Source: Candidatus Latescibacterota bacterium
GTDB lineage: Bacteria; Latescibacterota; UBA2968; UBA8231
Length of the DNA stretch: 64,000 bases
NCBI GenBank assembly: GCA_965215195.1
Contig: CBDCDC010000002.1
Location: 800,001 to 864,000, forward strand
Direction: 5' to 3'
Shown here: positions 25,294-64,000 of the stretch, piece by piece
How positions within the stretch are numbered: the first letter of the stretch is position 1
Layout: each line of letters begins with the position of its first letter
The notes under the pieces: generated by a model
Told to the model about the DNA's origin: nothing
The model's input: the letters and a program-made list of their open reading frames with translations, nothing else
Database searches by the model: none
Position numbers and translations under genes: made by a program

Positions 25294-25320
25294 AAAAGTG
25301 CGAATTCCGAGCACTTTTTT
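25294..25320. terminator. Terminator-like hairpin
   Basis: AAAAGTGC-N9-GCACTTTTTT. Confidence 0.55.
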
Positions 25321-27416: not shown

Positions 27417-27607
27417 GCAGAGGGACTCCGTCAACAAGCGCCCAGCCCGCTTCTTTTATCTGCTCGTACCGGCACATCCAGTTTGGCCTCGGCTCGCGTC
27501 GCGCCCAAGGGCGTCTCTTGACAAAATCTTTCCGTCTTGCCAGTCTCAAACATATGGGAACCACAGATGGTCCCCTTAACTGGTTTAAAAAAAAAGGCGC
27601 GAGAGAT

Positions 27608-28303: not shown

Positions 28304-28314
28304 GCCGAGTTGGC

Positions 28315-28348
28315 AAAACCCGTCGGGCTCTGTTGCTCGGCGGGTTTT
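28315..28348. terminator. Terminator hairpin between convergent genes
   Basis: AAAACCCGTCGGGC-N6-GCTCGGCGGGTTTT. Confidence 0.75.
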
Positions 28349-28544
28349 ATGCCCGTCGCCTTCGATAATATCTATGGACAGTTCCGCAATTTTCGCCGCC
28401 AAATAGTCTATGCGCTCGACGACAACCTTGTCCTCGTGGCGACGGCAAGCCGCTTTTCGTTAAAGGCCATTGCGCCTAGTTGTAAAGGGAGGTCGCTTTG
28501 TCCGCATCGGCAGTATCGCTACGGACGCTCCTCTCCTCCTAATT

Positions 28545-31500: not shown

Positions 31501-31970
31501 CTGCGCAACACCCAATCGCTGGCCCCGGGCGAGACCGAGCTTTTGGAGCGGTGATCTTCTCCCGACAGCAGGACCATGGCACCGCGAGCGCCAGTGCCGC
31601 TGAGATTGGCCAACCACACCTCGTCGGGAATCCACATTGTGCCGTGTGCCTTGCCGTACCAAAAGGCATCCACGTCCCCACTGGCCGCAAACTGGCTGCC
31701 CAACACGGCCGAGGCCGCGGTTTTCTCGTTGATGCCGAACTGATGCACCGTGCGCCCCAACTCGTTGAGCACGTCGAGCTGGGCGACTATCTTCAGGTCC
31801 AGCCCGCCCAGCGGCGACCCTTCATAGCCGGTGAAATAGGTCTGGTTGACGTGGCCAGCGGCTTGGTCGCGCTCCTGCTTTTCGCGCACGAGGCGCACAA
31901 TCGCCTCCATGCCCGTGAGAAAGACCCGGCCATCGCGCTGTAAAAATTTGTCTTGAATGTCCAGCTTCAT
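28545..31970 (-). CDS. Fused indolepyruvate ferredoxin oxidoreductase family protein
   Basis: GYEGSPLGG, CGGCP, GDGSYFHSG TPP motif, CEGCGDC Fe-S, GLAQKGG, YKLMAYKDEYEVAR. Confidence 0.93.
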   Translation of the reverse strand: MKLDIQDKFLQRDGRVFLTGMEAIVRLVREKQERDQAAGHVNQTYFTGYEGSPLGGLDLKIVAQLDVLNELGRTVHQFGINEKTAASAVLGSQFAASGDVDAFWYGKAHGTMWIPDEVWLANLSGTGARGAMVLLSGEDHRSKSSVSPGASDWVLRSSMVPIFYPASIEDVIRLGLHAVALSRHAGVVTALKLATPVCDGASTVDLGCVRPAIALPERAFAKRFNQIVMATGALPMQQQLVEEKWPLVEEYVRANDLNRIVDADAGGGVGIVAVGKSYADVRQALAYLGLRIPVLHLAVSYPLDYEIVRTFARGLRRIYVVEEPGPFVEEGVKAALWDADVEAVYGQWDEDGQPLIPAHGEVDPEELVLKLGPRLGAAPERRAALQRVLDRTYPAVPGVTPMSCGGCPYNSFRDLREKPGGAIGCSSIRAIEAYDSGVLYIPTMGAGGSIYSGWAPFNGNQHIYQYLGDGSYFHSGRGAIQSCVQGEVNITFLLLFNGAVALTGGQTPGGQRPVSDVVQELLGLGVVKVGIVSEDPVRYRHLDGERIEVFGLERHAEALAQFKEIAGTTALILDKECATEKGRRRRREGLTPDEYVLIDEAICEGCGDCYAQSEGCAALYSVATEFGDKTQVRQAQCAQDGLCIDGECPSFAVVKPAKGTRLRRRRPEPLDELPEPPACPLERPYAIFAMGRGGTGVVTISHLIAYAAMMEGKYVYLSNNTGLAQKGGPVEAPIVISAAEQPVFNRLFPGEVDLYLGFDLLRAAEPDNLKYAAPQRTRALVSTAEIANAAMNRNPRTQPFPDAARLRALIDRCTGKDNIYLDTYWLAERLFSDAIFANMLLLGAAYQAGAVPLQAASIERAIALNAQAVEKNVQAFRWGRLAVADPARVERALGIQQVSAVQTLAEVRARLAHDAAAQALLDEGLAALAGLAVEGQKEVGVRLAELCAYQDVAYARRYLGFVRQVWAVDRGLSHGLQLTRAVVRGLYKLMAYKDEYEVARLATRNGSEERLRALFDGEVEIVRQLHPPTLRRLLKGKIGFGKGLRPALVLLSRLKGLRGTAFDVFGYTPARRLERELIGWYCGLIEKVLPALAEESYGLAVEIAELPDGIRGYEQVKEASAVQAKQRAAHLLTEWCAQRAS

Positions 31971-40591: not shown

Positions 40592-41332
40592 ATGCAAAAT
40601 CCCATCAAAGAACAACTCGCCGCCGGTCGCCCCTCCATCGGCTCCTGGCTCAACCTAACCTCGCCGCTGGCGGCCGAAGTTATGGCCGCGGCCGGCTTCA
40701 AATGGCTAGTGGTCGATGCCGAGCACTCGGCCTTTGACCTCGGCCACATTGCCCACACTTTCCGCGCCATTGAGGCACGCGGTGCCCTGCCCTTGGCCCG
40801 CGCCTGGGACCACGCCCCCACCACGGCCGCCCGCCTGCTCGACGCCGGGGCCTGGGGCTTGGTCTTCCCGCACGTCAGCACCCCGGAGCAAGCCGAAAAA
40901 CTGGCCCAAGCCGTGCGCTATCCACCGCGCGGCACCCGGTCGGTGGGCACGGGCCGCTGCGTCACGTTGGCTCCGGACTACCGCCAGCGCTTTGACGACG
41001 CCGTCCTCTGCATCCCGCAAATCGAGGATCTGGAAGGCATTGAAAACGCCGAAGCCATTGCCAGCGTCGCAGGCGTCGACATCGGCTTCCTCGGGCCGGG
41101 CGACTTGGCCATGGCCATGGGCGTGGCTGCCGGCCACCCCGACCACGAGGCCGCCTTGCAGGCTTTTCGCGCTGGCTGCACCCAAGCCGGCAAACCCAGC
41201 GGCATCCCAGTCAAGGACTCCGCCGAAGTCAAACGGCGCGTCGCCGAGGGCTTCCAGTTCATTGACTTCAGCAACGACATGCGGTTTTTGGAAGCCACGG
41301 CGCAAGCTGCCTACCGAGAGGCGACAACCTAG
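40592..41332 (+). CDS. HpcH/HpaI aldolase
   Basis: VDAEHS, LDAGA, RYPPRG-RS, QIE, GPGDL. Confidence 0.92.
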   Translation: MQNPIKEQLAAGRPSIGSWLNLTSPLAAEVMAAAGFKWLVVDAEHSAFDLGHIAHTFRAIEARGALPLARAWDHAPTTAARLLDAGAWGLVFPHVSTPEQAEKLAQAVRYPPRGTRSVGTGRCVTLAPDYRQRFDDAVLCIPQIEDLEGIENAEAIASVAGVDIGFLGPGDLAMAMGVAAGHPDHEAALQAFRAGCTQAGKPSGIPVKDSAEVKRRVAEGFQFIDFSNDMRFLEATAQAAYREATT

Positions 41333-41360
41333 TTTAACATCCTGTTCCGCTGTAGAAACC

Positions 41361-42362
41361 ATGACAGAAAATGATGCACTCGTCCCCAACAAGATATACC
41401 ACGGCGACTCGCGGCAGCTTCTAAAGAGAATTGAGCGAGAATCCATTGCCCTGAGTGTATGGTCGCCTCCCTATTACGTCGGCAAAGAATACGAACGAGA
41501 TTTGTCTTTTGCCGATTGGCAAAAACTCTTGCGCGATGTGATCGAACTGCACTTCCCCATCATTAAGCGAGGTGGCTTTTTGGTGATAAACATCGCCGAT
41601 ATACTGTGCTTCAAGGACGAGAGTATGCCGAAAATCATGGCAGAAAACATTTCGCGCAGAAAGATCGCCTTGACAAAAGAGGACATTCTCGAGGTTAAAC
41701 AGCAGCATCCCGATTGGAACCGCTACCAACTCGCAGCACACTTTGGATGCAGCGAACAAACGATTGACCGTCGCCTCAACGGCAACAACATTCGCGGCGG
41801 AAAGTACCAACTCCAAACAAGGGTTTATCTAGTTGGCGGCTTGATAGAATCATCCGCAACAGACGCTGGCTTTTATTTGTACGATCGGCGCTTATGGATA
41901 AAAGACGCCGCTTGGGAAAACTCGCGTTGGCACACCATATCGTACCGCTCGGTAGATGAGTCCGAATACCTGTACATCTTTTGGAAACCGGGTATAACGA
42001 AAGTGGATAGATCGCGGCTTGCAAAAAAAGAATGGGTCGATTGGGGTTCGAGAGGAGTATGGGAAATCCCCTCCGTCCGCAGCAATTCAGATCACGATTC
42101 TAAGTTCCCCATCGAGCTGCCGCGGCGAGCCATCAAGCTATTTACCGATCTAGGCGACATCGTTCTCGATTGCTTTGTGGGCAGCGGCACGACGGCCTTG
42201 GCCGCTCTGAGCGAAGGAAGGCGATACATCGGCATCGACAAGGAAAAGCAGTCGGTAGCTATTGCAAACGCCGCGCTACAATCGTTTAGCACCTATCAAA
42301 AAGATCCTGAGCAGATGGAGTTCATGCTGCGGGATTTAGAGGCGTTCTATCAAACACAATGA
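41361..42362 (+). CDS. Orphan beta-class amino-DNA methyltransferase (probably m4C) with an HTH-like insertion
   Basis: SPPY (motif IV) precedes DCFVGSGTT (motif I); H-SKFP; AT-richer than neighbours. Confidence 0.9.
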   Translation: MTENDALVPNKIYHGDSRQLLKRIERESIALSVWSPPYYVGKEYERDLSFADWQKLLRDVIELHFPIIKRGGFLVINIADILCFKDESMPKIMAENISRRKIALTKEDILEVKQQHPDWNRYQLAAHFGCSEQTIDRRLNGNNIRGGKYQLQTRVYLVGGLIESSATDAGFYLYDRRLWIKDAAWENSRWHTISYRSVDESEYLYIFWKPGITKVDRSRLAKKEWVDWGSRGVWEIPSVRSNSDHDSKFPIELPRRAIKLFTDLGDIVLDCFVGSGTTALAALSEGRRYIGIDKEKQSVAIANAALQSFSTYQKDPEQMEFMLRDLEAFYQTQ

Positions 42363-50509: not shown

Positions 50510-52780
50510 TCAGTAGGCCAAAGCGATGATTTTGGTCGTCCCCTGCGTCTGCGCATCGCCTTGCACTTCAACGCGTAAAATGTAGTTCCCCGGCGCGGCT
50601 AGCTGCCCGGATTCGGCCCGGCCATCCCAACTCAACGCTATCGGCCCGGCTATTTGCTGCTGGTCGTGCAGCACTCGGACTTTTCGTCCGCTCAGGTCGT
50701 AGAGTGCCACATGCAGCAAGCGGGGCTGGAGGACGTTCAACAGGGCGAACTCTATCCGCAGCCAATCGCCGATACCATCCCCGTTGGGGGTCACGAGTGC
50801 GGCCGACAACGCAAGCCCGTCGATCAAGGCCGGGCCGACTGGCAGCGACACGGCGATCGCGTCGCTGGCAACCGCGTCGCTGGCATCGCCCACATCCACC
50901 CGTTGCCTTATCTGTTGCTCTCCCCGGCCACTGGCCAAGAACGCCTCGAAAGGCATCTGTTGGCGGTATATCGTGCTGGCGAAGTCGAGCTCGATTAACC
51001 CGGCGCGGACGAATGGGTCGGCAAAGGCGATATCCAACCCACCATCCACTCGGATGACCTCCGCGTCCAATACCCGCCCCGCAGCGCGTATCTCGCCCAG
51101 CTCAATGTCTGCTCCTGAACGCATGAGCAACTGATCGAAACCCGTGCTGCCGGCCCCTGCATCCCAACCAAGATAATAGGTGAACTCGGTGCGCTGCCCT
51201 GGTTGGGCCTCGAGCGGGTCGATCTCGGCGCGCGTTGCCGCGGCCAAAGGCTCGTCGTAGCTGAGGACCAGCTCGTCGAGGATCGCTCCCTGCATGGGGT
51301 CGTCGCTGAGGAAATGGGCCTGCAATTGGACGAAACGCCGCGGCGTCGGCGAGAGAAACCCCCGCTCCGACCGCTCGTACGCTTGGCTCCAGATGCTCCA
51401 GTCCTCGCCGGGGGAACGCACGGTATCGATGCGGCCTTTGAAACTGGGTATGAGCTTGTTGTACTTCCTTTGGGTTACTTCCCTGCCGTTTTTGTCGTGG
51501 AAGACGTATAATTCCTGCAATAGATTGCCCGTCCGCGAGCGAATTTCTACGCGAGTCCCTTCCCAACTCAACGCCGTGGCATTGCGCACCGCCCCCAGAT
51601 CGTAGATCGGGGATTGCATGATGGTGCCGGCCGGATACCCCTCGCCAAAGACCTGAAATTCGGCTGTCGTGCCGGTGATGCAACACTGCCTGTTCGGATA
51701 GCGCATCCGCAGATAGCGCAGCGGCCGGAGCGAGAACTGCTCTTCAAAGTGGACGATATCGCGCAAGTTGCGGGGGTGTTCGGGCAATTCCCCCAAGACC
51801 TGCCAGCGCAGCGACCCGTCCGGTGCCAGCGATCCGTCCGACCCCCAGAGGATATACCAAGGGAAGTGGATGGCGTTGCGCCGGGTCCAGCGCCAGTCAA
51901 CGCTGCTCGGGGCGATGCCGGCCAGATCGCCCAAAATCCGCACCCGATCCACCCAGTACAGGGCCCCCAAATCAAAGGTGAATTCGGTGTCGCCCGGTTG
52001 GGAAAACCCCCAGTAGCGCCAACTCGACGCGATATCGCCGTCGATCAGGGCATTGCTATTGCCGGTTGACTCGTAGCCTTCGGCCCGCGTACCGATTTCG
52101 TTGAGGATATCGACCCGGCCGCCGCGTTCCCGCATCCCCAGCGAGATATTGTCCCCCACGGCCTCCACTGCAAGTGCGCTGATCCCGGCCCCGGCCGTGG
52201 GCAAATCTACTTGGATGCGGATGAATTGCAGCGGTTTAAGGCCGTATTCGATGACCAATTCCCGCTGCTGGTTAAAGCTGTAGCGGACGCGATCGCTATA
52301 GCGCACAGTACTCGGCAGGGGCAGGCCGGTCGAATCAAAAAAGCGCTCGCCATTGGACAGCAAGACCTGCAAAAACTCCAGCTGCGGCTCCCTGAGTTGC
52401 AAGACCACGCGCTGCGCGGAAACGACGCGGCCCAGATCGACCTCAACGTACATGTTCTCGGGATCGTCGTCCCAATCGGGTGCCCAGAAGCTGCCCAAGT
52501 TCCCATCGATCAGGTTGCCGGCAGCACCGCGGTTGGAGCCTGCGGCGCGGATGCCGCCGCCGAAATCCCCCGCATTGGCGACCGCGTCGATATCTCGCCG
52601 CACGAATCTGGGACCGGCTTTCCCACGGCTGATTTCGATTGCGTCGCCGGGCCGCTGCCACGCATTCCAATCCGCGCTGGTCCCGATCCGCAGTTTTTCG
52701 CCTGCCGCGGCTGAATATGCCATGCCGCAGAGCAGCACGGCCCAAAGGGCAGATCCCAACTGGCGTTGACTTTTCATCAC
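50510..52780 (-). CDS. Secreted beta-rich protein with discoidin-like regions and C-terminal FlgD-Ig domain
   Basis: Signal peptide; 'LIDG----W', 'DLG'; TPNGDG and 'YDLSGRKVR...WDGR--SG----PG-Y'. Confidence 0.85.
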   Translation of the reverse strand: MMKSQRQLGSALWAVLLCGMAYSAAAGEKLRIGTSADWNAWQRPGDAIEISRGKAGPRFVRRDIDAVANAGDFGGGIRAAGSNRGAAGNLIDGNLGSFWAPDWDDDPENMYVEVDLGRVVSAQRVVLQLREPQLEFLQVLLSNGERFFDSTGLPLPSTVRYSDRVRYSFNQQRELVIEYGLKPLQFIRIQVDLPTAGAGISALAVEAVGDNISLGMRERGGRVDILNEIGTRAEGYESTGNSNALIDGDIASSWRYWGFSQPGDTEFTFDLGALYWVDRVRILGDLAGIAPSSVDWRWTRRNAIHFPWYILWGSDGSLAPDGSLRWQVLGELPEHPRNLRDIVHFEEQFSLRPLRYLRMRYPNRQCCITGTTAEFQVFGEGYPAGTIMQSPIYDLGAVRNATALSWEGTRVEIRSRTGNLLQELYVFHDKNGREVTQRKYNKLIPSFKGRIDTVRSPGEDWSIWSQAYERSERGFLSPTPRRFVQLQAHFLSDDPMQGAILDELVLSYDEPLAAATRAEIDPLEAQPGQRTEFTYYLGWDAGAGSTGFDQLLMRSGADIELGEIRAAGRVLDAEVIRVDGGLDIAFADPFVRAGLIELDFASTIYRQQMPFEAFLASGRGEQQIRQRVDVGDASDAVASDAIAVSLPVGPALIDGLALSAALVTPNGDGIGDWLRIEFALLNVLQPRLLHVALYDLSGRKVRVLHDQQQIAGPIALSWDGRAESGQLAAPGNYILRVEVQGDAQTQGTTKIIALAY

Positions 52781-55700
52781 GACGAGAGCTTAACGGAACG
52801 CGGCCTAGTCTTGCCCTCGCAAAAGTACAGGGCCTTGAATCGGTCCATTTGTTTGATTTTGTCGATCAATACTCGTTCCTGCTGCGAGCTCGACACATTC
52901 CGTACAAGCGACTTGGCATCCGCTTGGGTCAATCGCAAAACGAGATAGTTGGCGATGGCCGAAAATACCGAGACGTCGAAGTCCTTCGCCTCCTGCGAGG
53001 CAAGCACTAGCGAAATACCGTACTTCCGGCACTCTTTTGCCATGGTGGGAATGAGCTTTAACCCTGCGGCCCGGTGCGCCTCATCGAAAATCAAGGTGTG
53101 CGTAATTCGATCTTGGATGCCTCTGCGGAACATGTCCTTGTAGAGACCGTAAAACACCAACGACGCAAAAGCCCGCTGAAGGTTGTCATTCTGAGTCGTG
53201 TGAATCCGCATGACGGTCGGCTGCTCGCTCTCCCACAAGCTGCTGTGGGACTCGCGGAGATTGAAGAACCCGTAGTCTTCAAGTTCTTCCAACCGCGCAA
53301 GCAGCGTCCGCAACCCGCGGTCTGGTTTTGGATCGCCGCGCAGAATCTCGACGAAGCGATTGAACGGCGGTTCCTGCAAATCCGCGGCCGCCGCGTTGGC
53401 GTTTCCCCAGCCCAGCTCAACGAAGCTGTCCTTAATGGCTCCCCGAATGCGCTCGGCCTGAATGTCGCCGAGTTCCGGGTAGATCGCCGCGAAAATATCC
53501 CGCATCGCACCCGCCACGTCGAGATGCGCCATCCGAGATCCTCGATCAACCACCTCCAGCGGGTTGAAGCCCAAACCATCAAAATCGATGAACCGAACCG
53601 CCGACTGCCCAAGTCGCTCGTCAATGTCCTGATGATAGGAAAAGACGATCGGGCGAATACCGGCTGCCATCATCTGATTGCACAGGTTCAGCAGGCAGGT
53701 AGTCTTGCCCATACCGGGCAGCCCCGCTATCAGAAGGTGGGGGTTGCCCTGTACGGTCAGCGGCCATCGAACTTCTTCGTTGGTCGAGGGATCGGTGCCG
53801 AAACAGATCGAGGGTACAGCTTCCGTTTCTCCCCCGATGGCTTCTAGCTGGTCAACGGATATTGCTGGTGCCCCCCTTGCGGCGTCCTGCTTCGACGACA
53901 GCCGATCCTCCGCTTCAGGGGGGCTGGTGGTCATTTCACCGCGAAAATCCAAGTCCGGCAGCAGGTTAGGACCGCATAGGAATACCTGCGTACTCCGATT
54001 GTCCGGAGAAATTTTCAACGGACTCGCCCCGGCATACTCGGGGCAAAACACCCAGCCGCGGTCTCCGCTTTCGTCTGCGTCCAGCCTGTAGTCGCCGCCC
54101 TTTGCGATCATGCGGTCAAGATCGGCCACAAGCTCGGCATACCGCGCCGCCGGTAAATAGTGCCTACGCGCCTTGTCTGCATAGAAGCGCAGTACCCGGG
54201 CCAGCTTGGCCCGACGCACCGCTCTGAACGCTGAGCACACTTCATGTGCATACCAGTCGTTCCAACGCTTGCGCAGCACAGCGGTCTGTTCCCGAATGCG
54301 GCGCAAAAGGTCCGGGGACCTTGCAGCGCGTAGATCCCGACGGTACTTGACCTCGACGAAACGGAACATCAGTCCCTTTCTCGGTGCCGTGGTCACATAC
54401 ATCAAGTCCGGGCGCACCTCCTTCTCATCGCCGTCCTCGTCCATCAACGGCGGCAAGAGATCTCGAACATCATCGACGGGCACGATGAAACCGCGCTCCA
54501 GCGATACCCAGCATGGATCCGTCTCCTGCGCCTGCTGGCAATTGGCCTGCGAAACGGCGAGCGCGATCAACTCCGAAGTCGGCGGTTTGTCTCCAGTGAG
54601 GCGAATGGCGAGCCGGCCGCTGAGGGCCTTCAGATGCTCCAAGAGGAATTCCGCGTTGCGACGGCTGCGGCTGAGCCCCATCTGCTCCAAGGCACCATCA
54701 AGCAGGACGCGTACCTCCTCCAAATTGCTAGTAGAGGTAATTAGCTGTAAGCAGCCTAAGTCCTCCCGTTCTGGAACGCAGTCAATCACGTACGCATCGT
54801 AGATTGCCCGATTGTCCCGCGGGGAATCGAAGTACTCAATGCCGGCGTTCCGGTCCAGCGTGATAACCCAATCGCAAAGCCGGTGGAGCTTCTTGAGACC
54901 ATCCTCCTTTTCCCGCGAGACCGCTGTGTACAGCACTGGCAGCTTTCCATTCTCAGCACCAGCATGTCGCGCCACAGTGCCCTGTATGGCGCGTTGCAAG
55001 TCCTCCAAGCGTTTAGTATGGGCGCGGTCCGCCGGATGCCTTTCGCCATCTTTCGCCAGCGCGACCGTACTGCGCCATAGCGGCGAGGGCTTGGCGGCGA
55101 AGTCGCGCTGGTAGAACGAAAGCAGGCCAAACGCATGGAACGTCCCGTCGTTTGGCCTTTCTCGCTCGTCCGGCCTTACCTGCGACTCGAATGTGTCAAA
55201 CGCGACGGCAACGTGGGCTGCGGTCTTCGGGTCAAGCCCATTCTTGCGTGCCCAGCGCAACCTCGGCATGTTCACGCCGCCGGGCAGACTCACGGATTCG
55301 AGCATCCACTGATCGTCGGTTGACACCACCCCAGCACCACTGCGCCGCCGTTCCCGCGCCTCGGCAATGAACCGCCCGGCAATTCCGCGCTGTTCCTCAG
55401 AAGGATACATTTCCAGCGAGAAGACGGGTGCCTCGGAAGCACCCTCGTCATCGGCCCAGCGCAGGCGGTCGTGGACGAGGCCCAAAGACCGGGCAATAGT
55501 CAGACCATCTCCCGCCCGAAGGGCGTGAACGCGGAGTAGGGGGGACGTGTTGTGGCAGTCCAAGTACTTGACGATCTCGTCGCCGACCACCTCTGCGCTC
55601 TGTCCCCCTACCGTTGGGGCGGCGTCCATGGACTCACCCTCCCCCAGCGCACGGGCGAGAATCGCCACCGCCGCCTTGGGCTCCTTGTCCGTGTCCGGGA

Positions 55701-57699
55701 CCATGCCGACCGCATGAAAGCCGAGGGTATCCGCAAAGACAAACGATCCGCCGGTTCGATTCGGGAGAAAGGCCGGGAACATGGCACCGTCCAAGCACTG
55801 GAACTCGTCTCTTACGTCTTTTGCCTTTTGAGCCTGCTCGAAGGCCGCGTGGAAAACGAGATTGTCATACGCTGCATGCCATGCGACGCGCAACGGGTGC
55901 ATCGGCAGGACGATGAGGCCAATCATCCGCCCGGCAAGGGACCGCACCTCCACGGTGTTGCACAGGGCCAAAGATGGATCGCCGCTCTCCAACAATGCAG
56001 TCCAAGCGCGGAGGAACTCTTTAACCGAATCAAACGCTTTCGCCTTATCGTCATATACATGGCCCACCACCCCGCCATCCTTGTGGATGCGAGCCGCCAA
56101 TCTTCGGCTCGCCACGGTGGCTTTCTTCCATGTCTTCCCTCTACCCTCATGGCGAATGAACTCCACGTCTCCCGCTCGGGCACCGGACGCACGGACCTTG
56201 ACGCGCCAATACCCAATCGCTCCACCGCGCTCCATCCACTGCTTTTCCACGTCGCGGATCAGCGGCGGACAAGGCACGCGAAAACTCAACCGTTTTGTCT
56301 CTACGGATGTGCGCAACAGCACCAAGTTTCTCTTCTCATCAAAGCTGAAATTCGCCGAACTGTCGGCGATGGTGGACACGCTCTCCCGCTCATCGAGTTC
56401 GACCAAGCCCTCGCTAAACGCACGGACCTTGCGGCCCGCCCCGCCGGCGCTCTTTTCGGGTGGCTCGCCAAAGCGGATAATGAATTCCTCGCTCTCTTGC
56501 GGTTCGACCGCTTCGTTGCCCACCGCGGAAACCACCACTTTGGCGGAGACCAGAGAGTCCTCGTTTAGCGATGAGAAGTCGTCATTACTGAACCGGCACT
56601 TCTCCCCTCCTCTACGCGCCGAGTGACTCACGTCGCGCACGGCCAGCTCTTCGTCCGCACCGGCTACTACGGCAATGCGGTACTCCACCGCGTTCTTTTC
56701 TAAGTTGCCGGGCCGCACCTTCCAGCGGATCTCCAGATTCTTATAGTCAGCCGACGACGCAGCTTCGGGCTTCAGGATCAGAACCGGGGGTTGCTCATTC
56801 GCTTCTCCAGGGAATAGTCCAGCGGATTCCTCAACCAATCCCGACCACTTGGCGATTGCGCCGTTCCGGGTGCGCCAAGGCGTCAGTTCAATGGATTCGA
56901 TGTCATCGGCATTCTCTATCCGCAATTTACCGACCCACAGGTGCTTCTTGTCGGCCAGCGTCGCCAACGCCGACAGCAGCGGTTGGGTTTCTGCGGTATG
57001 CAGGAAAACTGCGAGATCGCGGCGTTGCTCGTCCGTCGGCTGCGAAAGCCGCAGCGACTCAATGCGCGCCGGGATGGTCTGCCCAGAAGCCGCCGTTCCC
57101 AGCAGGTGATCTACAAACCGGCGCGAGTCGTCTAAGGTACTCTCGTCTGTAATGGGCCACAGGCCGAGCAGGTGAAGATACGCGCCGGGATGCCGGTTGT
57201 GCGCCGCAATGCGGCAGAGGAAGTCGAACGCGGTCCATGGCGAAACGCTGTACTGACTGCCGAATCCCTGCGCCTTTTTGATGGCTTGCTCGGCATATTG
57301 GCGATGGGCACTCGACAATCGGCGCGTCACCTCAGCAGCAGCTCGTCGCTGAGCTTCCCTGAATAGGCTTGTCTCATCCACTTCCCGCGAGGCACTGTAG
57401 ATGCCGTCCATGCCGGCGCCGGCAAGCTGGGTATCCACCAGCAGCAAGAGGGCCTCGCCTTTGGCCTCGCGCATCTCGACAGCGCGGTCCGCGGTAATGG
57501 TCCGCAGGTTGGCATCGTCCGAATCCGCTACCTGCCGAACCTGCCAATTTTGTACGCAGAAGTTGTCGTCCGCAGCGAGCTTTGTCACCACATCTGGCGT
57601 CAGGCAGCGGGCGAAGGCCATGGCCCCGGGTTCGGCGCGGCCCAGCACCTTCTCAAACGCCCGCCCGAGTACTTGCCCATGTAGTTTGCTCCACTCCAT
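52777..57699 (-). CDS. Large nuclease-ATPase, DndH(DptH)/MAD8-like
   Basis: 'RPDL...FVEVKYR' PD-(D/E)XK motif; C-terminal HerA/FtsK ATPase GLPGMGKT, LIFDEAH, ECRKYG, ASQ. Confidence 0.8.
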   Translation of the reverse strand: MEWSKLHGQVLGRAFEKVLGRAEPGAMAFARCLTPDVVTKLAADDNFCVQNWQVRQVADSDDANLRTITADRAVEMREAKGEALLLLVDTQLAGAGMDGIYSASREVDETSLFREAQRRAAAEVTRRLSSAHRQYAEQAIKKAQGFGSQYSVSPWTAFDFLCRIAAHNRHPGAYLHLLGLWPITDESTLDDSRRFVDHLLGTAASGQTIPARIESLRLSQPTDEQRRDLAVFLHTAETQPLLSALATLADKKHLWVGKLRIENADDIESIELTPWRTRNGAIAKWSGLVEESAGLFPGEANEQPPVLILKPEAASSADYKNLEIRWKVRPGNLEKNAVEYRIAVVAGADEELAVRDVSHSARRGGEKCRFSNDDFSSLNEDSLVSAKVVVSAVGNEAVEPQESEEFIIRFGEPPEKSAGGAGRKVRAFSEGLVELDERESVSTIADSSANFSFDEKRNLVLLRTSVETKRLSFRVPCPPLIRDVEKQWMERGGAIGYWRVKVRASGARAGDVEFIRHEGRGKTWKKATVASRRLAARIHKDGGVVGHVYDDKAKAFDSVKEFLRAWTALLESGDPSLALCNTVEVRSLAGRMIGLIVLPMHPLRVAWHAAYDNLVFHAAFEQAQKAKDVRDEFQCLDGAMFPAFLPNRTGGSFVFADTLGFHAVGMVPDTDKEPKAAVAILARALGEGESMDAAPTVGGQSAEVVGDEIVKYLDCHNTSPLLRVHALRAGDGLTIARSLGLVHDRLRWADDEGASEAPVFSLEMYPSEEQRGIAGRFIAEARERRRSGAGVVSTDDQWMLESVSLPGGVNMPRLRWARKNGLDPKTAAHVAVAFDTFESQVRPDERERPNDGTFHAFGLLSFYQRDFAAKPSPLWRSTVALAKDGERHPADRAHTKRLEDLQRAIQGTVARHAGAENGKLPVLYTAVSREKEDGLKKLHRLCDWVITLDRNAGIEYFDSPRDNRAIYDAYVIDCVPEREDLGCLQLITSTSNLEEVRVLLDGALEQMGLSRSRRNAEFLLEHLKALSGRLAIRLTGDKPPTSELIALAVSQANCQQAQETDPCWVSLERGFIVPVDDVRDLLPPLMDEDGDEKEVRPDLMYVTTAPRKGLMFRFVEVKYRRDLRAARSPDLLRRIREQTAVLRKRWNDWYAHEVCSAFRAVRRAKLARVLRFYADKARRHYLPAARYAELVADLDRMIAKGGDYRLDADESGDRGWVFCPEYAGASPLKISPDNRSTQVFLCGPNLLPDLDFRGEMTTSPPEAEDRLSSKQDAARGAPAISVDQLEAIGGETEAVPSICFGTDPSTNEEVRWPLTVQGNPHLLIAGLPGMGKTTCLLNLCNQMMAAGIRPIVFSYHQDIDERLGQSAVRFIDFDGLGFNPLEVVDRGSRMAHLDVAGAMRDIFAAIYPELGDIQAERIRGAIKDSFVELGWGNANAAAADLQEPPFNRFVEILRGDPKPDRGLRTLLARLEELEDYGFFNLRESHSSLWESEQPTVMRIHTTQNDNLQRAFASLVFYGLYKDMFRRGIQDRITHTLIFDEAHRAAGLKLIPTMAKECRKYGISLVLASQEAKDFDVSVFSAIANYLVLRLTQADAKSLVRNVSSSQQERVLIDKIKQMDRFKALYFCEGKTRPRSVKLSS

Positions 57700-57700
57700 A

Positions 57701-59506
57701 TCAGTTCTCCATCGCCAGCTTGAAGCGAGGTTCCAACCGCTTCATGGCTTCTGCATCGTTGACGCCCACCAAAAGCCCTAAGTCGCGCAGCCGCCGCTCC
57801 AGAATCGTGCGATTCCTTTGCAGCAATTCGTTGGAGATCGTCATTCCCTCCGGGGCAGTATCCACGTGGAATCCATAGCGTTCGCGTAACACTTCGAGAA
57901 ATTCCCTGAACGAGAGGGGGCGGACGCCCGGTTTGTTGCCGCTTTTCAACAAGTGAAGATGCACCAGATAGTCCAGCACCGAATCAGTGAACACGAGGGA
58001 ACGAACGTCGCGTTTCCGGCGCGTTGTGCTGGCGCCTAGACCGCGCGTCGTCGTCCGCCTAGCCGCCAGCCCGTTCGGTCGCCCGGTGAGCAAGCTCGAG
58101 TCAATCATCGACATGAAATTGCTACGAGGCTTCCACCCCATTAGCACCATCAAGCCATCGGCAAGCCGCCAGACCGGGTTTTCTTGGCTGGTATCGTTAT
58201 CCAGAATTTCCGCGGCCTCGGGGTAGCCATCCGCTAGTCCCTCGGCCAGTTTGTCGGCATCGTCTTCTATCCTGTCCAAAATTCTTCGTGCTTGCGGATG
58301 GCGGTCGTGCAGCAAGCCCCCCAATAGATTCAGCCAATCCGTGGCATAAGGTCGGGTAGCAATATCCTCCTTTTTGATTCTTTTATTGTCCCGCGCCCGA
58401 TAGTCCAATAGCCGCAATACCATTAAAAGGACGGGAAAACGCTCCATACGCCGCATGTAGTCGTCCATTGACTGCTCGGCCGCATCCCGAATGCTTCGCT
58501 CAACCCCATTAGAGCAATCCATGAACAAAGGGGCGGGCCGCTGTTCTTCGCGAGCTGGGACAGTGCCGGTCTCCGACCACCGCAACAACAGCTCGACTGC
58601 GCTGGTAAGAATAGTCGTCAGACCTATGGCAATACACGATTCCAGCATCTCTACTAAAGCGTGTCGTGGCATCGGGACTGCATACGAACGCACGAAGCGG
58701 CGAATATCATCGGAGAAATTCCGCGCCGCTTCCTCTGCTATGGGGCGTTGATTGGAGATGGGACCTGCTTCCTTGCCCCGCATCTTGTCGGGTGCCCTAC
58801 CAATCTGCTGAGCGAGTCGGATCATCAACAGTTGGTCCAAGCCAACGGTTTCGTCTTCCTCCTTGAACCGATCCGATGCCAAGTCACTCGAGACCGCTCC
58901 CTCGCGGGTAACGCCTTGGCTGAAGCCATTCAACAAAACGTTCTCCTCGTACTTATTCCCCACAGGAAACCACGTTAGCTTTTTATTTTCGCTCTGTCCG
59001 ACATATTCGCCCTTCTGATCGGCCAGCATGGCAACGATCATTTCGGGAACGTAGCGAAGATCCGACACAGATTGTGGAAGATCTATCCAAGTCGCCATGT
59101 AATGGGCTGGCGCGACCCGCTGGATTTGCTGGTCGCGACCGAGATTGTGCTTGGTATTTTCGAGACAGAAACAGAGTAGTAGATCGCCGAGGATGGACTT
59201 CTCGGTTTCCTCGTCGAAACCATCAAACTCTGCCTTGCCGGACAGTGTCTCCGTGACGCGCTCAATGGTCGCCGATCTCCTTATTTGACTAGGCGAGCTA
59301 TTTTTATCGCCGAAGGTCTTTAGAAAATTTCCACCACCTCTGCGTTGACCAAAGCGGAACATATAAAAAACTGCCGGAAGGACTGCGGAAAGTTCAAACC
59401 CATCAATCGAGACTGGCAGTACTTTGTGATAATTACCCGACCATATTTCTCGGGTCATACCGGGGGACAACACTTCTTCGACGAGTTTGCGGGCATTATC
59501 GGCCAT
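57701..59506 (-). CDS. DndG(DptG)/MAD7-like protein
   Basis: Middle gene of the coupled trio; C-terminal 'FL--LRERYG...LERRLRDLGLL--VNDA' winged-helix-like end. Confidence 0.65.
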   Translation of the reverse strand: MADNARKLVEEVLSPGMTREIWSGNYHKVLPVSIDGFELSAVLPAVFYMFRFGQRRGGGNFLKTFGDKNSSPSQIRRSATIERVTETLSGKAEFDGFDEETEKSILGDLLLCFCLENTKHNLGRDQQIQRVAPAHYMATWIDLPQSVSDLRYVPEMIVAMLADQKGEYVGQSENKKLTWFPVGNKYEENVLLNGFSQGVTREGAVSSDLASDRFKEEDETVGLDQLLMIRLAQQIGRAPDKMRGKEAGPISNQRPIAEEAARNFSDDIRRFVRSYAVPMPRHALVEMLESCIAIGLTTILTSAVELLLRWSETGTVPAREEQRPAPLFMDCSNGVERSIRDAAEQSMDDYMRRMERFPVLLMVLRLLDYRARDNKRIKKEDIATRPYATDWLNLLGGLLHDRHPQARRILDRIEDDADKLAEGLADGYPEAAEILDNDTSQENPVWRLADGLMVLMGWKPRSNFMSMIDSSLLTGRPNGLAARRTTTRGLGASTTRRKRDVRSLVFTDSVLDYLVHLHLLKSGNKPGVRPLSFREFLEVLRERYGFHVDTAPEGMTISNELLQRNRTILERRLRDLGLLVGVNDAEAMKRLEPRFKLAMEN

Positions 59507-62500
59507 TTGTTATCTCCTCCAGTCGCCGAATGATCATCTGTTGCTGAACGCCAGCATCGGCCCCTTCGACGATCTCCGCAGCAACCTCGTAGGTCGCCTC
59601 GTCCTGCATTGGATTCCAAGCCAGCACCGTGCGATCATCCTCGCGCACCAACCGCTGCACAAAGATCGACAAGTGAGCAAAGGTGTCGTCGGTCGAAACA
59701 TCGCCCAACTGATAGCCTTCACTCAGTTCCAAAAGCAGGTGAAACAGATCGGCACCGAGGCGGAGCCGCTCTTCGCCCCCATCCCGATAGCGGTAGATTA
59801 GAAGGGCTTGGCGATGCAGCCGGTCGAGTCCTTCGGCTTCGGCTGGCAGATCAGGTTCAAGCCGAAAGTTGCTCAGTGGCTTCTCCACCCAGAACGCGGT
59901 TTCCGTCGGCGTCCGCGGCGTGATGCGTAGCGGGACCACATCAGGGCGGTCAAGTGCTTGCGGCGGCAGACTTTCCAAGCGCGCAATCCCCTCGCACAGC
60001 CTGCGGCAAAGATCGTCGCGATCACCTTCGGCGATTGGGAGATTGCTGAACTCCCGATAATGCCGCGCTTGGGCCAAGCCGAGGGCGTGAGCATCGCCGA
60101 CAAGCTCATTGAGGTCGTCTGCGGTCCATTCAAAGTAGGCCCGCCGCCGCGCTTCTTTTAGCGTCAACCCCGGATAGTGGGGTGCCCCTTTAGAGGTATC
60201 AACAGAGGGGGTTCGCAGCAGGTGCCGATCAATCTGCGGATGGGCTTCGAGGGCCGGATCAAAGCGAATTAGCTCTTGCAAGACTTCGCCCTGTCGTCCC
60301 GACGACTCCGGCGCAAAGGCGCGTTCCCAATAGGGCAACGGAGCGTCCGCACCGTTGTGATAGTCGCTACAGAAGTGGACGCCGAACAGGATATAGACCA
60401 GTGCGGCCCGCAGCTCGCGGACCGTGATGTGAGTTTCGCCGCGCAGGTGAACGGCTTGCAACATCTCAAACAGCCGCTGCCGAGCGCGTGTACGCTCATC
60501 TTGCGGGGCCATGCCGGGAAGCCCTTGGGGGCCAAATCGCCGCATGGCGCGGCGGACCTCGCAGCGATCTTGGGCCGAACACGTCTCGCAAGGTGCCCAA
60601 TGCTGGGCGGCCTTCTTCCGGCCGTAGAGGCTGTCTAGCAAATCCTCGAGAAAGCCGGTTTCAATGTGCGATTCGCTCGGCACCACGCTTCCAACAAGCG
60701 ACCGTTGATTGAGGCTGATGAAGCGGATGTGTGATTCGGGGGCGGCTTCCTCTCTGTCGAGCAAGCCGTAGAGAGCCTGTGTCAACGGCGTTTCACTTTC
60801 GACTCTCTCAATCCACTCCAAAAGACGCCCATCGTTGATCGCCAGCAGATGGACGATGGCCTCGTCGGGCACGCCCTGTTGAAACGGCTCCAAGAATTCA
60901 TCCAAAAGCTCATCGGCAGAACGTCCCTGCCACGCCGCCGACCCATCGAGATTCATGCGGACGATCAGGCCATCCTCCATCCGATTCTCCAGAATGCGCT
61001 CTGAGGAATTGTGTATGCCAAACCCAAGACGACCGGCAAGGTGCTGGAGCAACGCGGTTTTCCCGTCGCCGGCGTTGCCACACAGGATGACGAGCCGAAC
61101 TTTTCGACGCAGAATGTCGCCATACAGTGCATCTTCGAGCTTGGTTTCAACGTAGGTTTGCGCGGCGAAGTCCGTGTCGAGGCCTCGGGTTTCGCTGTTT
61201 CCCCAGCGAGAGCCGGGGTAGGATTGCAGCAAGAATTGCAGCCAAGGCACTTCGTTCTCACGACGAACAGGAGGTTCCGCTGGTGGCTCGGATTCATCGG
61301 CACTTTCGGCCTCAGTGGCCGCGGGTGGACTCAAAGCAGCCTTTGCTTCGGCCGCAGACGCAAATCGCTGCACCGGGTCGGGATTCGTCGCCTGATCCAG
61401 AAATGCGGCAACGGTCGGGTACGCCGTGCGCTCGACGCCATCCCAATTCAAGCCGCGTTCCTTGGCCCGGCTGCCGTCGTACATAAACGGCTCTTTCTCG
61501 AAAAGCACCTGAAAGAAGCTGGCGGCCAACGCGAAGAAGTCGTCCGCAGGAGCGGCCGGGCGGTCTTTGAGATGAGTATGCGAGCTATACATGACGGTGC
61601 CGGGAGCGGCGACCGGCTCATCGAGCTTGGCTACACAGTCGTAGTCCGTCAAAACAATATCGCCGTTGGCAACGATCATGTTGCGCGGGCTGACGTCGCC
61701 ATGCACCAAGCCGTTGCCATGCAGAACGTCCAACGCAGCGCAAACCGCGTACAGCCAACGCAAAGCTAGTGCTTCCCCGGACTCTTCGTGGAAGTCTTCA
61801 GCAAGGATCGGGAGGACGCCGGCAAGTTCGCTCAAGGGTTCGCCTTCGATCCACCGCATCAATGCAACAAAGCAGTTGTCGCGCCACTCGTCCGCCGTTT
61901 CAAATATGGTCGAAAGCGCGGCCGAATCAGCGAGGTGCGAATGCGCCAAGTTGTACGCCCGCAGAACTCGCTCGCCGGTTCTTTTGTCCCCCACAACCTT
62001 GGCGACGTAGGCACCGAGATCCCCGCCGGTCGCGCCATCGATCCGCACCACCTTGAACGTGGTTCCGACCCCTCCCGAACCGAGACGCGAAACGATCCGG
62101 TAATCCCGGCCGCGAAATTTCACAACCTGATCTTCGGTCCAGAATCGGGCCGGTGGCGCAACGACAGCCGGCGGTTCGCCCAGCAGGGCCGACAATGAGT
62201 CGCGGAGTTTTTCCAATGTAGCTCGCTCCGCCCGATCGTCCGCCTTACCCTCGGCCAGCACCATGCTAGCCTCGTCTCGTTCCGCGAACAGCACGGACAG
62301 ACTGGCGCACAACGAATACACATCGGACTGACGATCCGCCGCCCCAAGGCCCTGTTTGCGAATCTCGGGGGCCACCGCAACGTCCCACTCGTCTTCTTCT
62401 ACCTCGGAGACCGCCACCGTGACGTCTGCGGGAATCCGGGCGTACTGGAGACCCGTCAAGATCGGCGTGTTGTCATGTCTGACGAGAATCGTGCCCGGCG

Positions 62501-63470
62501 TGAGGTTCCGGTGCAGCATGGGTTCGTCGCCCTCGCCCGCTTCGTGCAACTCTGTCAATGCTTCTACTGCTTGCCGAGCAAAGGCTAGTCGCGCCTTCGC
62601 ATCCCACGTATCGTCAGCGGCGCGTTGCGCGAGGCTAGGGGCCGCCGGGTCTGCGACCGTGAAGAACCACATCTCGCCAGCGTATCCCGGTGCCTCTTGA
62701 AATGAATCGACAATGCGCGGTGCCCAAGCTCGAAGTTGCAGCCGGTGCAGTGCGCCAAATTCCCGCCGCGCCCGGTCCTCTGGATTCGGCCGATCGATCG
62801 CCGACACGTCGCAAAGGTGCAGGAGCACGCGATCCCGCCGCTTAGAATGCGTACCCTTGTAGATTCGATGAAGCCGCTCGGCCGCCGGCGTCTGAAGTTC
62901 CAGATTGACATAGCCGGCCAATCGTCTCAGCGCACCGTCCATAACCACGCTGGCCTTTGGGTACAGAGCCTTGCCCAGCATCTTGACCTGCGACGGCGAT
63001 AGAGACGCCGGCGCATTTAGTGCCAAGGCACTTTGCCAAGTTTTCAACGTGTGGAAGCGAACGCCGCGGACTTCCCGCTCCTCAAGAGGCTTGACTTTCG
63101 CCGCATCCTGCGTGACCAAAAATACCCCATCCACCCGGCCGAGATCCGAGATCTTCTGGCGCAAGGTGGTGCCGACCTTGCGCGCCTTGTTCGTTACGCG
63201 CTCGGCTTCGCGTTCCACAAGTTCGGTATTCTGCTTCACCCAAGTCGCGTTCCAGTGTTTGACCTCAATGACCCGAACTCCAGGCGGGCCGATGGCGACA
63301 ATGTCGATTTCATCTGATTGGCGTCGATGAGTGGTGGAAAACGCGAGGTTGGTCAGCAGCAACCACTCGCCATCGCCCAACTCGGAAATCAAGCCCGTCT
63401 TGAGCCGCTCAAAGGCCCGCCGCTCGCTCTCGTTGACGGCCGGACCACAGCTAATAAGGGTAACTTTCAT
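59496..63470 (-). CDS. NERD + pseudokinase + Ser/Thr kinase + DndF-like P-loop protein (MAD6-like)
   Basis: EIDIV...IEVKHW (NERD); HRNL-P; LGSGGVG, VAK, HGDVSPRN, LTDYD; LCGNAGDGKT, AINDGRL, CETC----RC. Confidence 0.82.
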   Translation of the reverse strand: MKVTLISCGPAVNESERRAFERLKTGLISELGDGEWLLLTNLAFSTTHRRQSDEIDIVAIGPPGVRVIEVKHWNATWVKQNTELVEREAERVTNKARKVGTTLRQKISDLGRVDGVFLVTQDAAKVKPLEEREVRGVRFHTLKTWQSALALNAPASLSPSQVKMLGKALYPKASVVMDGALRRLAGYVNLELQTPAAERLHRIYKGTHSKRRDRVLLHLCDVSAIDRPNPEDRARREFGALHRLQLRAWAPRIVDSFQEAPGYAGEMWFFTVADPAAPSLAQRAADDTWDAKARLAFARQAVEALTELHEAGEGDEPMLHRNLTPGTILVRHDNTPILTGLQYARIPADVTVAVSEVEEDEWDVAVAPEIRKQGLGAADRQSDVYSLCASLSVLFAERDEASMVLAEGKADDRAERATLEKLRDSLSALLGEPPAVVAPPARFWTEDQVVKFRGRDYRIVSRLGSGGVGTTFKVVRIDGATGGDLGAYVAKVVGDKRTGERVLRAYNLAHSHLADSAALSTIFETADEWRDNCFVALMRWIEGEPLSELAGVLPILAEDFHEESGEALALRWLYAVCAALDVLHGNGLVHGDVSPRNMIVANGDIVLTDYDCVAKLDEPVAAPGTVMYSSHTHLKDRPAAPADDFFALAASFFQVLFEKEPFMYDGSRAKERGLNWDGVERTAYPTVAAFLDQATNPDPVQRFASAAEAKAALSPPAATEAESADESEPPAEPPVRRENEVPWLQFLLQSYPGSRWGNSETRGLDTDFAAQTYVETKLEDALYGDILRRKVRLVILCGNAGDGKTALLQHLAGRLGFGIHNSSERILENRMEDGLIVRMNLDGSAAWQGRSADELLDEFLEPFQQGVPDEAIVHLLAINDGRLLEWIERVESETPLTQALYGLLDREEAAPESHIRFISLNQRSLVGSVVPSESHIETGFLEDLLDSLYGRKKAAQHWAPCETCSAQDRCEVRRAMRRFGPQGLPGMAPQDERTRARQRLFEMLQAVHLRGETHITVRELRAALVYILFGVHFCSDYHNGADAPLPYWERAFAPESSGRQGEVLQELIRFDPALEAHPQIDRHLLRTPSVDTSKGAPHYPGLTLKEARRRAYFEWTADDLNELVGDAHALGLAQARHYREFSNLPIAEGDRDDLCRRLCEGIARLESLPPQALDRPDVVPLRITPRTPTETAFWVEKPLSNFRLEPDLPAEAEGLDRLHRQALLIYRYRDGGEERLRLGADLFHLLLELSEGYQLGDVSTDDTFAHLSIFVQRLVREDDRTVLAWNPMQDEATYEVAAEIVEGADAGVQQQMIIRRLEEITNGR

Positions 63471-63515
63471 CGGTCGTCGCCTTCCATGAGCACTTAAAAA
63501 AACGCTATCTGTTCC

Positions 63516-64000
63516 CTACCCCACGCGATACTTCTCCACGGCCTCCACATCCAGCTCAACGCCCAGCCCGGGCGCGTCCGGCACGGCCACGAAGCCATCA
63601 ACCGGCGTCAGCGCACCGCCGATTAGGTCGTTCTCGCGGGTAAAGTGCAGGCTGTCCGAGGGAATGGTCGCATTGGGAACGGTCGCGTGGACGTGCGTGC
63701 CATAGGCCCCGGACACGCCCAGCCCCAACCCCACGACCTGCAACCAGACCGGCATCCCGGCCGCCGCAGCCATGCCAGCGCAGATCTGTACGCGCTCGAC
63801 ATGGCCGCCCAGATTGAAGCAATCGGCCGCCTCGGCGCGGATCGCGCTCAGCACCATCTGGGGATCGCCTAAATGGGGCGCGAGCCGGATGCGGGTGTGG
63901 CGGCGAAAGTCGCGGTACTGGTGCCAGCCCGGCAAGTACTGGAAAGGATCCTCAAATGCCTCAATGTGATACGGCTCTAATGACTCGGCCAGCCGCAGGC
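63516..64000 (-). CDS. Mandelate racemase/muconate lactonizing enzyme family protein (C-terminal part)
   Basis: 'FEDP' near the window end and 'VPDAPGLGVELD' C-terminal motif; 5' part lies outside the window. Confidence 0.8.
   Translation of the reverse strand, partial: LRLAESLEPYHIEAFEDPFQYLPGWHQYRDFRRHTRIRLAPHLGDPQMVLSAIRAEAADCFNLGGHVERVQICAGMAAAAGMPVWLQVVGLGLGVSGAYGTHVHATVPNATIPSDSLHFTRENDLIGGALTPVDGFVAVPDAPGLGVELDVEAVEKYRVG

Follow-up and report, generated by a model that had tools for sequence, protein, structure and literature searches.

A kinase-armed, DndFGH-like gene trio without a linked DNA modification module in a Latescibacterota genome

How might a set of restriction-type proteins related to DndFGH operate where no genes for marking the host DNA are coupled to it? 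The question is raised by three genes on the minus strand of a 64,000-nucleotide (nt) stretch of DNA from a Candidatus Latescibacterota bacterium (assembly GCA_965215195.1, contig CBDCDC010000002.1, positions 800,001 to 864,000; G000:C2:800001-864000 in our numbering). We call the whole of this stretch the window, and positions refer to it unless a contig or locus is named. The genome (G000) is 6.13 Mb in two contigs and is 95.2% complete. Gene A (59496-63470, 1324 amino acids (aa)) encodes a DndF/MAD6-like subunit, gene B (57701-59506, 601 aa) a DndG/MAD7-like subunit and gene C (52777-57699, 1640 aa) a DndH/MAD8-like subunit. A first-pass annotation had placed three minus-strand open reading frames (ORFs) of these lengths at 52777-63470, and the ORF list matches this exactly. 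We conclude that the trio is probably an anti-invader module of the DndFGH superfamily, self-contained and able to move horizontally, belonging to the kinase-armed clade that also supplies MAD6-7-8.

The coupling and integrity claimed for the genes are both borne out. A and B overlap by 11 nt, the TGA of B is separated from the ATG of C by 1 nt, and a single base is common to the TGA of C and the ATG of the next gene. No stop codon lies inside any of the three translations. The flanking genes are also those that had been described. Upstream is an MR_MLE (enolase-superfamily) gene whose stop lies 45 bp ahead of the ATG of A, while the gene that overlaps C downstream encodes a 756 aa protein with F5/8-type-C and FlgD-Ig/T9SS-tail-like domains (Pfam); the N-terminus of this protein, as read from its translation, is signal-peptide-like. 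The 45 bp leader (63471-63515, minus strand) spans the interval from the MR_MLE stop to the ATG of A, and a pattern scan of 63300-64000 found no sigma-70-like promoter or terminator patterns.

In four other genomes of the same genus (G001, G009, G010 and G011) the MR_MLE and F5/8C genes are only ~29-32 bp apart. Here the same site is occupied by 10,736 bp (~52778-63513), with the leader at the left boundary of the inserted DNA when compared with the empty sites. The trio is a precise ~10.7 kb presence/absence indel within the genus. It is single copy in G000 and its distribution is patchy, B being present in nine of 61 relatives (G000 included) and in six of the 30 other genomes of the genus. 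The cassette itself carries no integrase gene. All three genes are under purifying selection, the ratio of non-synonymous to synonymous substitution (dN/dS, by NG86 against eight to nine relatives) being 0.14-0.27 for A, 0.11-0.18 for B and 0.12-0.26 for C. Relaxed selection had been named in advance as a result that would count against a working system; a range of 0.11-0.27 across the three genes is that of purifying, not relaxed, selection.

Two further observations concern the insertion site. A second copy of the 3′ end of the MR_MLE gene, 64-71 bp in length, stands directly after C at three other loci (L023, 16804-16874; L024, 16804-16867; L106, 13028-12959), so that in some genomes the cassette is flanked by partial direct repeats of its target; the locus in this window has no second copy, which has been lost here. 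One of these loci, in the same-genus genome G002 (L106, i.e. G002:C1:352001-371000), holds a remnant at 12956-16035 in which residues 1-703 of A are joined to a decayed segment of C (residues 1258-1639), a junction that implies an internal deletion of ~8 kb. The F5/8C gene beside this remnant has internal gaps.

The family extends far beyond the genus. More than 1,300 homologues of B were found in a collection clustered at 90% identity, the top 120 being 68-89% identical to it, and the family forms 399 clusters at 50% identity (E up to 1e-3). A tree of B, which is a quick maximum-likelihood tree and not a finished careful search, mixes the phylum labels: it requires 23 label changes in all, where 13 is the minimum. 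At least four changes on starred branches are needed for each of Acidobacteriota, Pseudomonadota and Binatota. The Latescibacterota copies, this one included, form one clade (99). Judged by this tree, the trio has evidently spread horizontally between phyla. The G+C content of B is 54.3% compared with 60.1% for the genome. A scan of viral contigs with the B alignment found no relatives.

A scan of species-representative genomes gave 76 related loci carrying 14 phylum labels, and 52 of these have at least 3 kb of flank on both sides. The order A-B-C and the domain span are the same in all 76, A being missing only in L070 and L092, whose contigs start inside B. No neighbour of the trio is conserved across these loci. 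The largest cluster among 599 flanking ORFs is present in five of the 76 loci, and the two nearest ORFs on each side (254 ORFs from 72 loci, compared with Pfam) are mostly unrelated housekeeping genes, with a minority of type I or ISP restriction-modification (R-M) pieces, SIR2, phospholipase D (PLD)-SNF2, AbiEi, HNH, PIN and RES genes, transposases and integrases. A DNA-methylase domain is found among these nearest ORFs at four of the 72 loci (L056, L063, L071, where it is a fragment, and L089). With seven methylase queries, tblastn found a homologue in the flanks of 10 of the 76 loci, four of which are the same C5 methylase in kin of the same genus. Genes like MAD3, MAD4 or MAD5 were sought in the flanks in the same manner, and were found at none of the 76 loci. 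Two tandem copies of B are present at five loci (L031, L035, L090, L091 and L093); at the two Caldilineaceae loci the copies are mutually closest, and at the Acidobacteriota loci the duplication is older.

The composition of the three proteins places them with DndFGH and with the last three proteins of MADS. Motif conservation was judged on sets of 51, 67 and 60 aligned homologues, at least 90-98% of which retain the catalytic and nucleotide-binding motifs. Protein A begins with a NERD nuclease domain of PD-(D/E)XK type (~1-135; Pfam match at residues 13-87, 7e-10), whose residues E54, D56, E69 and K71 are found in 98% or more of the 51 full-length homologues that were aligned. There follows a kinase-like region (~190-400) that we read as a pseudokinase, with H320-R321-N322 and the DFG motif missing. 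The NCBIfam model MADS6 matches residues 5-400, i.e. the NERD and pseudokinase region, at 167 bits compared with a cut-off of 460. The second kinase domain (457-735; Pfam Pkinase at 457-668, 4e-16) is a Ser/Thr kinase with an active-looking set of motifs: the glycine loop G464-G469, K491, H-G-D592, N597 and D609-Y-D are all conserved in the 51 sequences, and align by BLASTP with the HCD...N...DFN motifs of a MAD6-like kinase. A DndF/SspF-type P-loop core follows at ~770-1050 (PADLOC SspF match at 773-1031, best E 3.7e-14). Its Walker A sequence GNAGDGKT (G798...K804-T805) is invariant, and the motifs NLDGS (N840/D842), AINDG (N879-D880) and C-x2-C-x5-C (C961/C964/C970) are conserved in the same 51 sequences. 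The placement of these motifs on strands, and the alpha+beta character that we assign to the C-terminal domain running to residue 1324, are our inference from the sequence. When A was used to search the sequences of the PDB, the sole matches were kinases.

Protein B gave no family match in the local Pfam library, and a sequence search of the PDB gave none at E up to 1. The precomputed Pfam label of B homologues, PF26611, is missing from the local Pfam. NCBIfam MADS7 covers B nearly end to end (E 5e-44), at 151 bits compared with a cut-off of 410, and PADLOC gives mad7 at 3e-15 and a weak SspG match at 1e-4. A model of B made by AlphaFold2 from a 79-sequence alignment has a pLDDT of 91.4 and a pTM of 0.92. 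In the PDB, Foldseek finds one significant fold match to this model, 7exx ('The structure of DndG'), with an E of 1.2e-5, a prob of 1.00 and a TMt of 0.54; the second-best match has an E of 0.3. The predicted structure of B has the DndG fold.

Protein C has an N-terminal part made of an alpha/beta and helical region, followed by a beta-sandwich (~268-414, with Z-scores of 8.6 and 7.9 by VIA-align), a methyltransferase-like Rossmann domain (~590/696-992), a PD-(D/E)XK nuclease (D1098, E1116, K1118) and a HerA/FtsK ATPase (1294-1636). Of 59 aligned sequences, at least 90% retain the nuclease motif D1098...E1116-V-K1118. The ATPase occupies the C-terminal ~350 residues, which are matched in PADLOC by DndH (3e-21), mad8 (5e-16) and a number of HerA models; in the aligned homologues its Walker A (K1332) and Walker B (D1539-E1540) motifs are conserved, as is S-Q1569. 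Sequence matches of C in the PDB are to HerA chains and to DptH (7es4, E 1e-3). Residues 1-1200 were modelled by AlphaFold2 with a pLDDT of 82 and a pTM of 0.64. Foldseek with the whole of this model gave weak matches to Brr2-type superfamily 2 (SF2) helicases, and these weak global matches only. The region ~696-992 of the model has the fold of a class I S-adenosylmethionine (SAM) methyltransferase, with a best VIA-align Z of 13.2 (160 residues aligned, root-mean-square deviation 3.0).

The methyltransferase fold in C raises the possibility that the trio is a complete R-M system in itself, i.e. that this domain is active or binds SAM and writes the self-mark, making C a type IIG/ISP-like enzyme with a HerA motor. 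The fold matches M.BseCI with a Z of 10.6 and the methyltransferase part of LlaGI with a Z of 8.7, and the loop after the first strand has an invariant G730-D731. Against this, C has no [SDN]PP[FYW] motif, the sequence after the fourth strand being AFDTFES, and no methyltransferase model of Pfam or PADLOC matches C. Moreover, Rakesh et al. (PMC10853773) judged the corresponding domain of DndH to be catalytically dead. We regard a self-marking enzyme of this kind as very improbable.

We next ask to which known system the trio belongs. Several features are those of the DndFGH superfamily: the F-G-H gene order, a DndG-type middle subunit, the succession of restriction endonuclease (REase) and HerA/FtsK domains and, from fold comparison of the predicted structure, a DndH-type beta-sandwich with a methyltransferase-like domain lacking DPPY. 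The relationship to DndFGH and MAD6-8 that the first-pass annotation had drawn is supported by the matches to NCBIfam MADS6 and MADS7 and to PADLOC mad6, mad7, mad8, SspF, SspG and DndH, by the DndG fold, and by collinearity with MAD6-7-8.

The trio most closely fits a described type. Rakesh, Aravind and Krishnan (NAR 2024, PMC10853773) report DndFGH in 1,798 taxa and all eight dnd genes in only 316, propose that DndFGH can be a stand-alone counter-invader system, and describe fusions of NERD, pseudokinase and kinase to DndF. The DndF core is defined there by a P-loop kinase with a canonical Walker A, an Asn in Walker B, an acidic residue beyond strand 2, a large lid that may carry a Zn insert, and an alpha+beta C-domain. 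DndG is given as a triple winged helix-turn-helix (wHTH) protein. DndH has eight domains; its N-terminal part has an inactive SWI2/SNF2 C-domain and a helix-turn-helix, there are also two TRDs and beta-sandwich domains, and the last three domains are an inactive DAM, an REase and HerA/FtsK. The trio is like the kinase-fused DndFGH so described in having three genes in F-G-H order that are not linked to dndABCDE; a DndF with NERD, an inactive and then an active S/T/Y kinase, and a P-loop with canonical Walker A, Asn motifs and a Cys insert; a middle protein of DndG fold; and a giant third protein with a beta-sandwich, a methyltransferase-like domain without DPPY, an REase and HerA/FtsK. It differs in that the PADLOC DndH models match the ATPase part of C only, and DndF and DndG models are not among the matches listed. 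A 2026 paper on BREX by the same authors (PMC12839542) again describes the NERD/pseudokinase/kinase triad, which it assigns to PglW and to 'a subset of DndF proteins'. The novelty that had been implied for this locus does not stand: both the NERD/inactive kinase/active kinase fusion to DndF and the stand-alone DndFGH are in print (PMC10853773, PMC12839542). Since the idea has been published as a computational prediction, the trio belongs to a known, computationally described type.

The resemblance to MADS (mad1-8 of Pseudomonas aeruginosa SMC4386, Maestri et al.) is one of collinear homology, A, B and C corresponding to MAD6, MAD7 and MAD8. It was examined with a Piscinibacter plasmid (L100) bearing an eight-gene MADS-like operon, made up of genes for a helix-turn-helix (HTH) protein, an N6 methylase, an AAA ATPase, two hypothetical proteins and then a 1391 aa kinase, a 557 aa and an 1858 aa protein. 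The last three are collinear with A, B and C, and similar to them in size, at 24-26% identity by BLASTP. A matches the MAD6-like kinase with an E of 6e-47 over residues 457-1283 and 1e-10 over residues 5-395, and the corresponding values for B and C are 8e-16 and 4e-26. Unlike MADS, the trio has no MAD1 regulator, MAD2, MAD3-MAD4 OLD-like nuclease or MAD5 adjacent to it (MAD3/4/5 being at none of the 76 loci); the identity is ~25%, and A and B fall outside the curated MADS6 and MADS7 equivalogs (167 compared with 460 bits and 151 compared with 410). The MADS preprint (bioRxiv 10.1101/2023.03.30.534895) gives a detection model in which MAD6-8 are mandatory and MAD1-5 accessory, with 'varying levels of completeness', and reports that phage defence in P. 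aeruginosa depends on every one of mad6, mad7 and mad8.

With SspFGH and the canonical DndFGH (DptFGH) the trio shares an SspF-type P-loop (E 3.7e-14), a weak SspG match, a HerA ATPase of DndH/DptH type and the DndG fold. To our knowledge the NERD-kinase arm is absent from the canonical SspFGH and DndFGH proteins. Unlike the Dnd and Ssp systems that are coupled to phosphorothioation (PT), no dndC, dndD, dndE or SspC was found in G000, and SspD gave only a 47-bit match. The triad of N-terminal NERD, pseudokinase and kinase is like that of PglW in type 2 BREX/Pgl, as described in PMC12839542. However, the C-terminal half of A is a DndF/SspF-type P-loop whereas that of PglW is wHTH and iSTAND, and no PglX, PglY, PglZ or BrxC-like gene lies within 20 kb upstream or in the window downstream. 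MANTIS (bioRxiv 10.64898/2026.09.23.753747) was considered as a relative and set aside; it is a BREX-related Gao_RL system that is unrelated to the trio. On these comparisons the trio does not qualify as MADS proper, as a PT-coupled Dnd/Ssp system or as BREX type 2. By its sequence it fits the described kinase-armed variant of DndFGH, as a stand-alone sister of the MAD6-8 arm.

A modification partner was also sought elsewhere in the genome. Searches of G000 gave no match to dndC (TIGR03183), none to dndD (TIGR03185) at 1e-5, and none to dndE (TIGR03184); the last is weak evidence, because the dndE model matched none of the 14 control genomes. The single PADLOC model for SspC gave no match in G000, and its control also matched nowhere. 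SspD (single PADLOC model) gave one weak match of 47 bits at C2:2244509, which we read as a PAPS-reductase-like protein, and SspE one partial match to its N-terminal part. The PADLOC models for mad1, mad2 and mad3 have 2, 97 and 185 matches in G000. These were rejected as a sign of MADS; the models match all 14 control genomes and are so generic that alone they cannot show a MADS module. Nor do the best mad2-like genes represent MAD2. They encode type I methylases, accompanied by the specificity and restriction subunits of their own systems; the matches that rank highest for mad2 and mad5 score far better as type I R-M, as exemplified by a gene with MTase_I at 1.5e-291 compared with mad2 at 5.8e-41. 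These searches found no MADS-type modification module in G000, nor a full mad1-5 or dnd cluster, either of which would have spoken against the first-pass proposal. The stand-alone state is supported in this way, with no dndC/D/E, SspC or MADS-type module in a 95%-complete genome, neighbour clusters at no more than five of the 76 loci and MAD3/4/5 at none.

The absence of modification genes from the immediate surroundings needs some qualification. None is directly adjacent, as had been said, yet two DNA methylases lie within 4-10 kb. About 4 kb upstream and just beyond the end of the window lies a gene encoding a 373 aa C5 cytosine DNA methylase (PADLOC MTase_II 1.8e-120), with a GIY-YIG gene (221 aa) immediately after it, at L001 6796-8582 (G000:C2:868796-870582); the two are probably a type II R-M pair. 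About 10 kb downstream of the trio there is an N6/N4 methylase domain on the plus strand (~41370-42362). Within the genus, the presence of these two methylases does not follow that of the trio. The C5 methylase and the trio occur together in G026, G027 and G005 (a methylase fragment), while the trio is found without it in G007, G018 and G022, and the methylase without the trio in G030. The N6/N4 domain accompanies the trio in G018 and G026 and is found without it in G004, G028 and G030.

These methylases bear on the possibility that the trio is a restriction arm dependent on a remote self-mark, made by an unlinked host methylase (e.g. of a type I or type II R-M system) and sensed by the reader module of C or by B, much as methylation by MAD2/MAD5 serves MADS. 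The homologous MAD6-8 do operate in a methylation-based system (bioRxiv 10.1101/2023.03.30.534895), C retains a methyltransferase fold, and G000 offers at least three type I R-M loci together with the C5 and N6/N4 methylases. Yet no methylase family travels with the trio, and the two nearest methylases occur independently of it in the genus, as the split occurrence of the C5 methylase in G007, G018, G022 and G030 shows. If a cassette of three genes that crosses phyla relied on one particular resident mark, it would be toxic to a new host as soon as it entered. We therefore consider dependence on a remote mark to be unlikely. A non-immune role is a good deal harder to credit, the trio then being either a selfish cassette of addiction type or an accessory of DNA repair or segregation that persists by its own mobility. 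The patchy distribution and inter-phylum spread would suit this, as would neighbours that are mostly housekeeping genes and not defence islands, and the lack of any copy on viral contigs. However, the recognisable domains are all of kinds typical of defence systems, the closest relatives that have been tested experimentally (MAD6-8 and DndFGH) act in defence, and some of the loci adjoin SIR2, type I/ISP R-M, AbiE, PLD-SNF2 or HNH genes.

We return to the anti-invader module as the favoured explanation. Its working can be sketched by analogy with relatives: the DndFGH complex is reported to have nickase and translocase activity (PMC11662687), and MAD7-MAD8 has been referred to as a second ATPase-nuclease module (PMC13662399). 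A, B and C would assemble into a single complex. DNA would be engaged by B, through its DndG fold, together with two modules of C, the methyltransferase-derived one and the beta-sandwich; the HerA/FtsK ATPase of C would translocate or capture the DNA, and the PD-(D/E)XK domain of C would nick or cut it. The P-loop core of A would bind nucleotide, acting as a sensor or regulator, while its NERD nuclease and active Ser/Thr kinase might serve as a switch or as back-up (abortive) effectors. A dedicated, linked modification module would not be required. More tentatively, the trio could be a fully autonomous immune machine that tells self from foreign without any epigenetic mark. Some feature of invading or replicating DNA might be recognised by the DndG-like subunit and by the methyltransferase-derived reader of C, whose G-D loop is invariant; the P-loop sensor of A would gate the HerA-driven nuclease, and the NERD nuclease and Ser/Thr kinase would provide an abortive second line. 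Since nothing would be needed from the host, three genes could then move between phyla.

A number of points weigh against the favoured explanation. Canonical DndFGH damages unmodified host DNA once the Dnd modification has been removed, so a module that carries no self-mark must be held in check in some other way, and the analysis turned up no such safeguard. Some DNA methylase lies within ~5 kb at 11 of the 76 loci. There are 50 full-length uninterrupted ORFs for A, 66 for B and 59 for C. The remainder either run off a contig end or are broken by frameshifts or stops; the genes are split at many loci, and these may be pseudogenes or assembly errors. In three Bryobacterales loci (L052, L053 and L067) C ends at ~1270 aa and has neither the HerA domain nor Walker A; the next ORF in this HerA-less variant is not an ATPase. 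The PADLOC DndH models are confined to the C-terminal ATPase of C and the MADS6 and MADS7 scores are far below their cut-offs, so that the transfer of function spans ~25% identity. Lastly, a literature search for a stand-alone DndFGH tested at the bench returned only the 2024 comparative paper, and no expression data were found.

DndFGH-type modules are large, widespread and poorly understood where there is no phosphorothioation, and the proposal that they can stand alone has come from comparative genomics only. This locus and its relatives provide a clean natural case of a precise three-gene indel that is under purifying selection, has apparently spread across phyla, and for which no modification partner was found. 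To the published prediction we add the clean indel, the survey of context at 76 loci, the test of selection, the confirmation of the DndG and methyltransferase folds in predicted structures, and the explicit link of the MAD6-8 arm of MADS to the stand-alone clade. The rule by which self and non-self are distinguished, if worked out, would account for the safety of a nuclease-translocase that has no methylase dedicated to it.

Copies in cultured organisms provide practical starting material for the bench. On two Rhizobium plasmids the trio (41-43% identity) has SIR2, IS66 and a type ISP enzyme as neighbours, and its genes bear the annotations 'NERD domain-containing protein kinase family protein', 'hypothetical protein' and 'ATP-binding protein'. 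On the conjugative Rhizobium phaseoli plasmid pRphaR630c (L099, NZ_CP013540.1 14187-39974) the trio stands alone at 21217-31933 of NZ_CP013540.1, and its neighbours are SIR2, DUF3616, S8 peptidase and FRG genes, IS66/IS21 elements and the type ISP enzyme.

Some other features of the genome can be noted. The best mad2-like type I loci are 3 Mb from the trio, in islands with PARIS-like (AriAB), AbiLi and prokaryotic Argonaute (pAgo)-like matches. Three such distant defence islands (L096-L098; C2:3858001-3876000, 3898001-3916000 and 4152001-4170000) contain three type I R-M sets, pAgo/SIR2-like, AriAB (PARIS-like), AbiLi and SoFic/PDC-S04 matches, together with the PADLOC candidate families PDC-M02B, PDC-M03B and PDC-M38A/B. 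In the ORF of the N6/N4 methylase the first ~200 codons (40716-41370) overlap a minus-strand ORF at 40706-41446, and this 5′ part has in-frame TAG stops in most genomes of the genus. The methylase probably starts near 41370, and the N-terminal extension is likely to be an antisense artefact. The neighbours of the trio at this locus are the MR_MLE, HEPN, GFO/IDH and F5/8C-FlgD-Ig genes, the HEPN-domain protein (L001 3763-4497) lying between the C5 methylase pair and the trio. The downstream F5/8-type-C and FlgD-Ig/T9SS-tail-like protein (50510-52780) belongs to a very large paralogous family in G000, with more than 50 tblastn matches at 24-50% identity.

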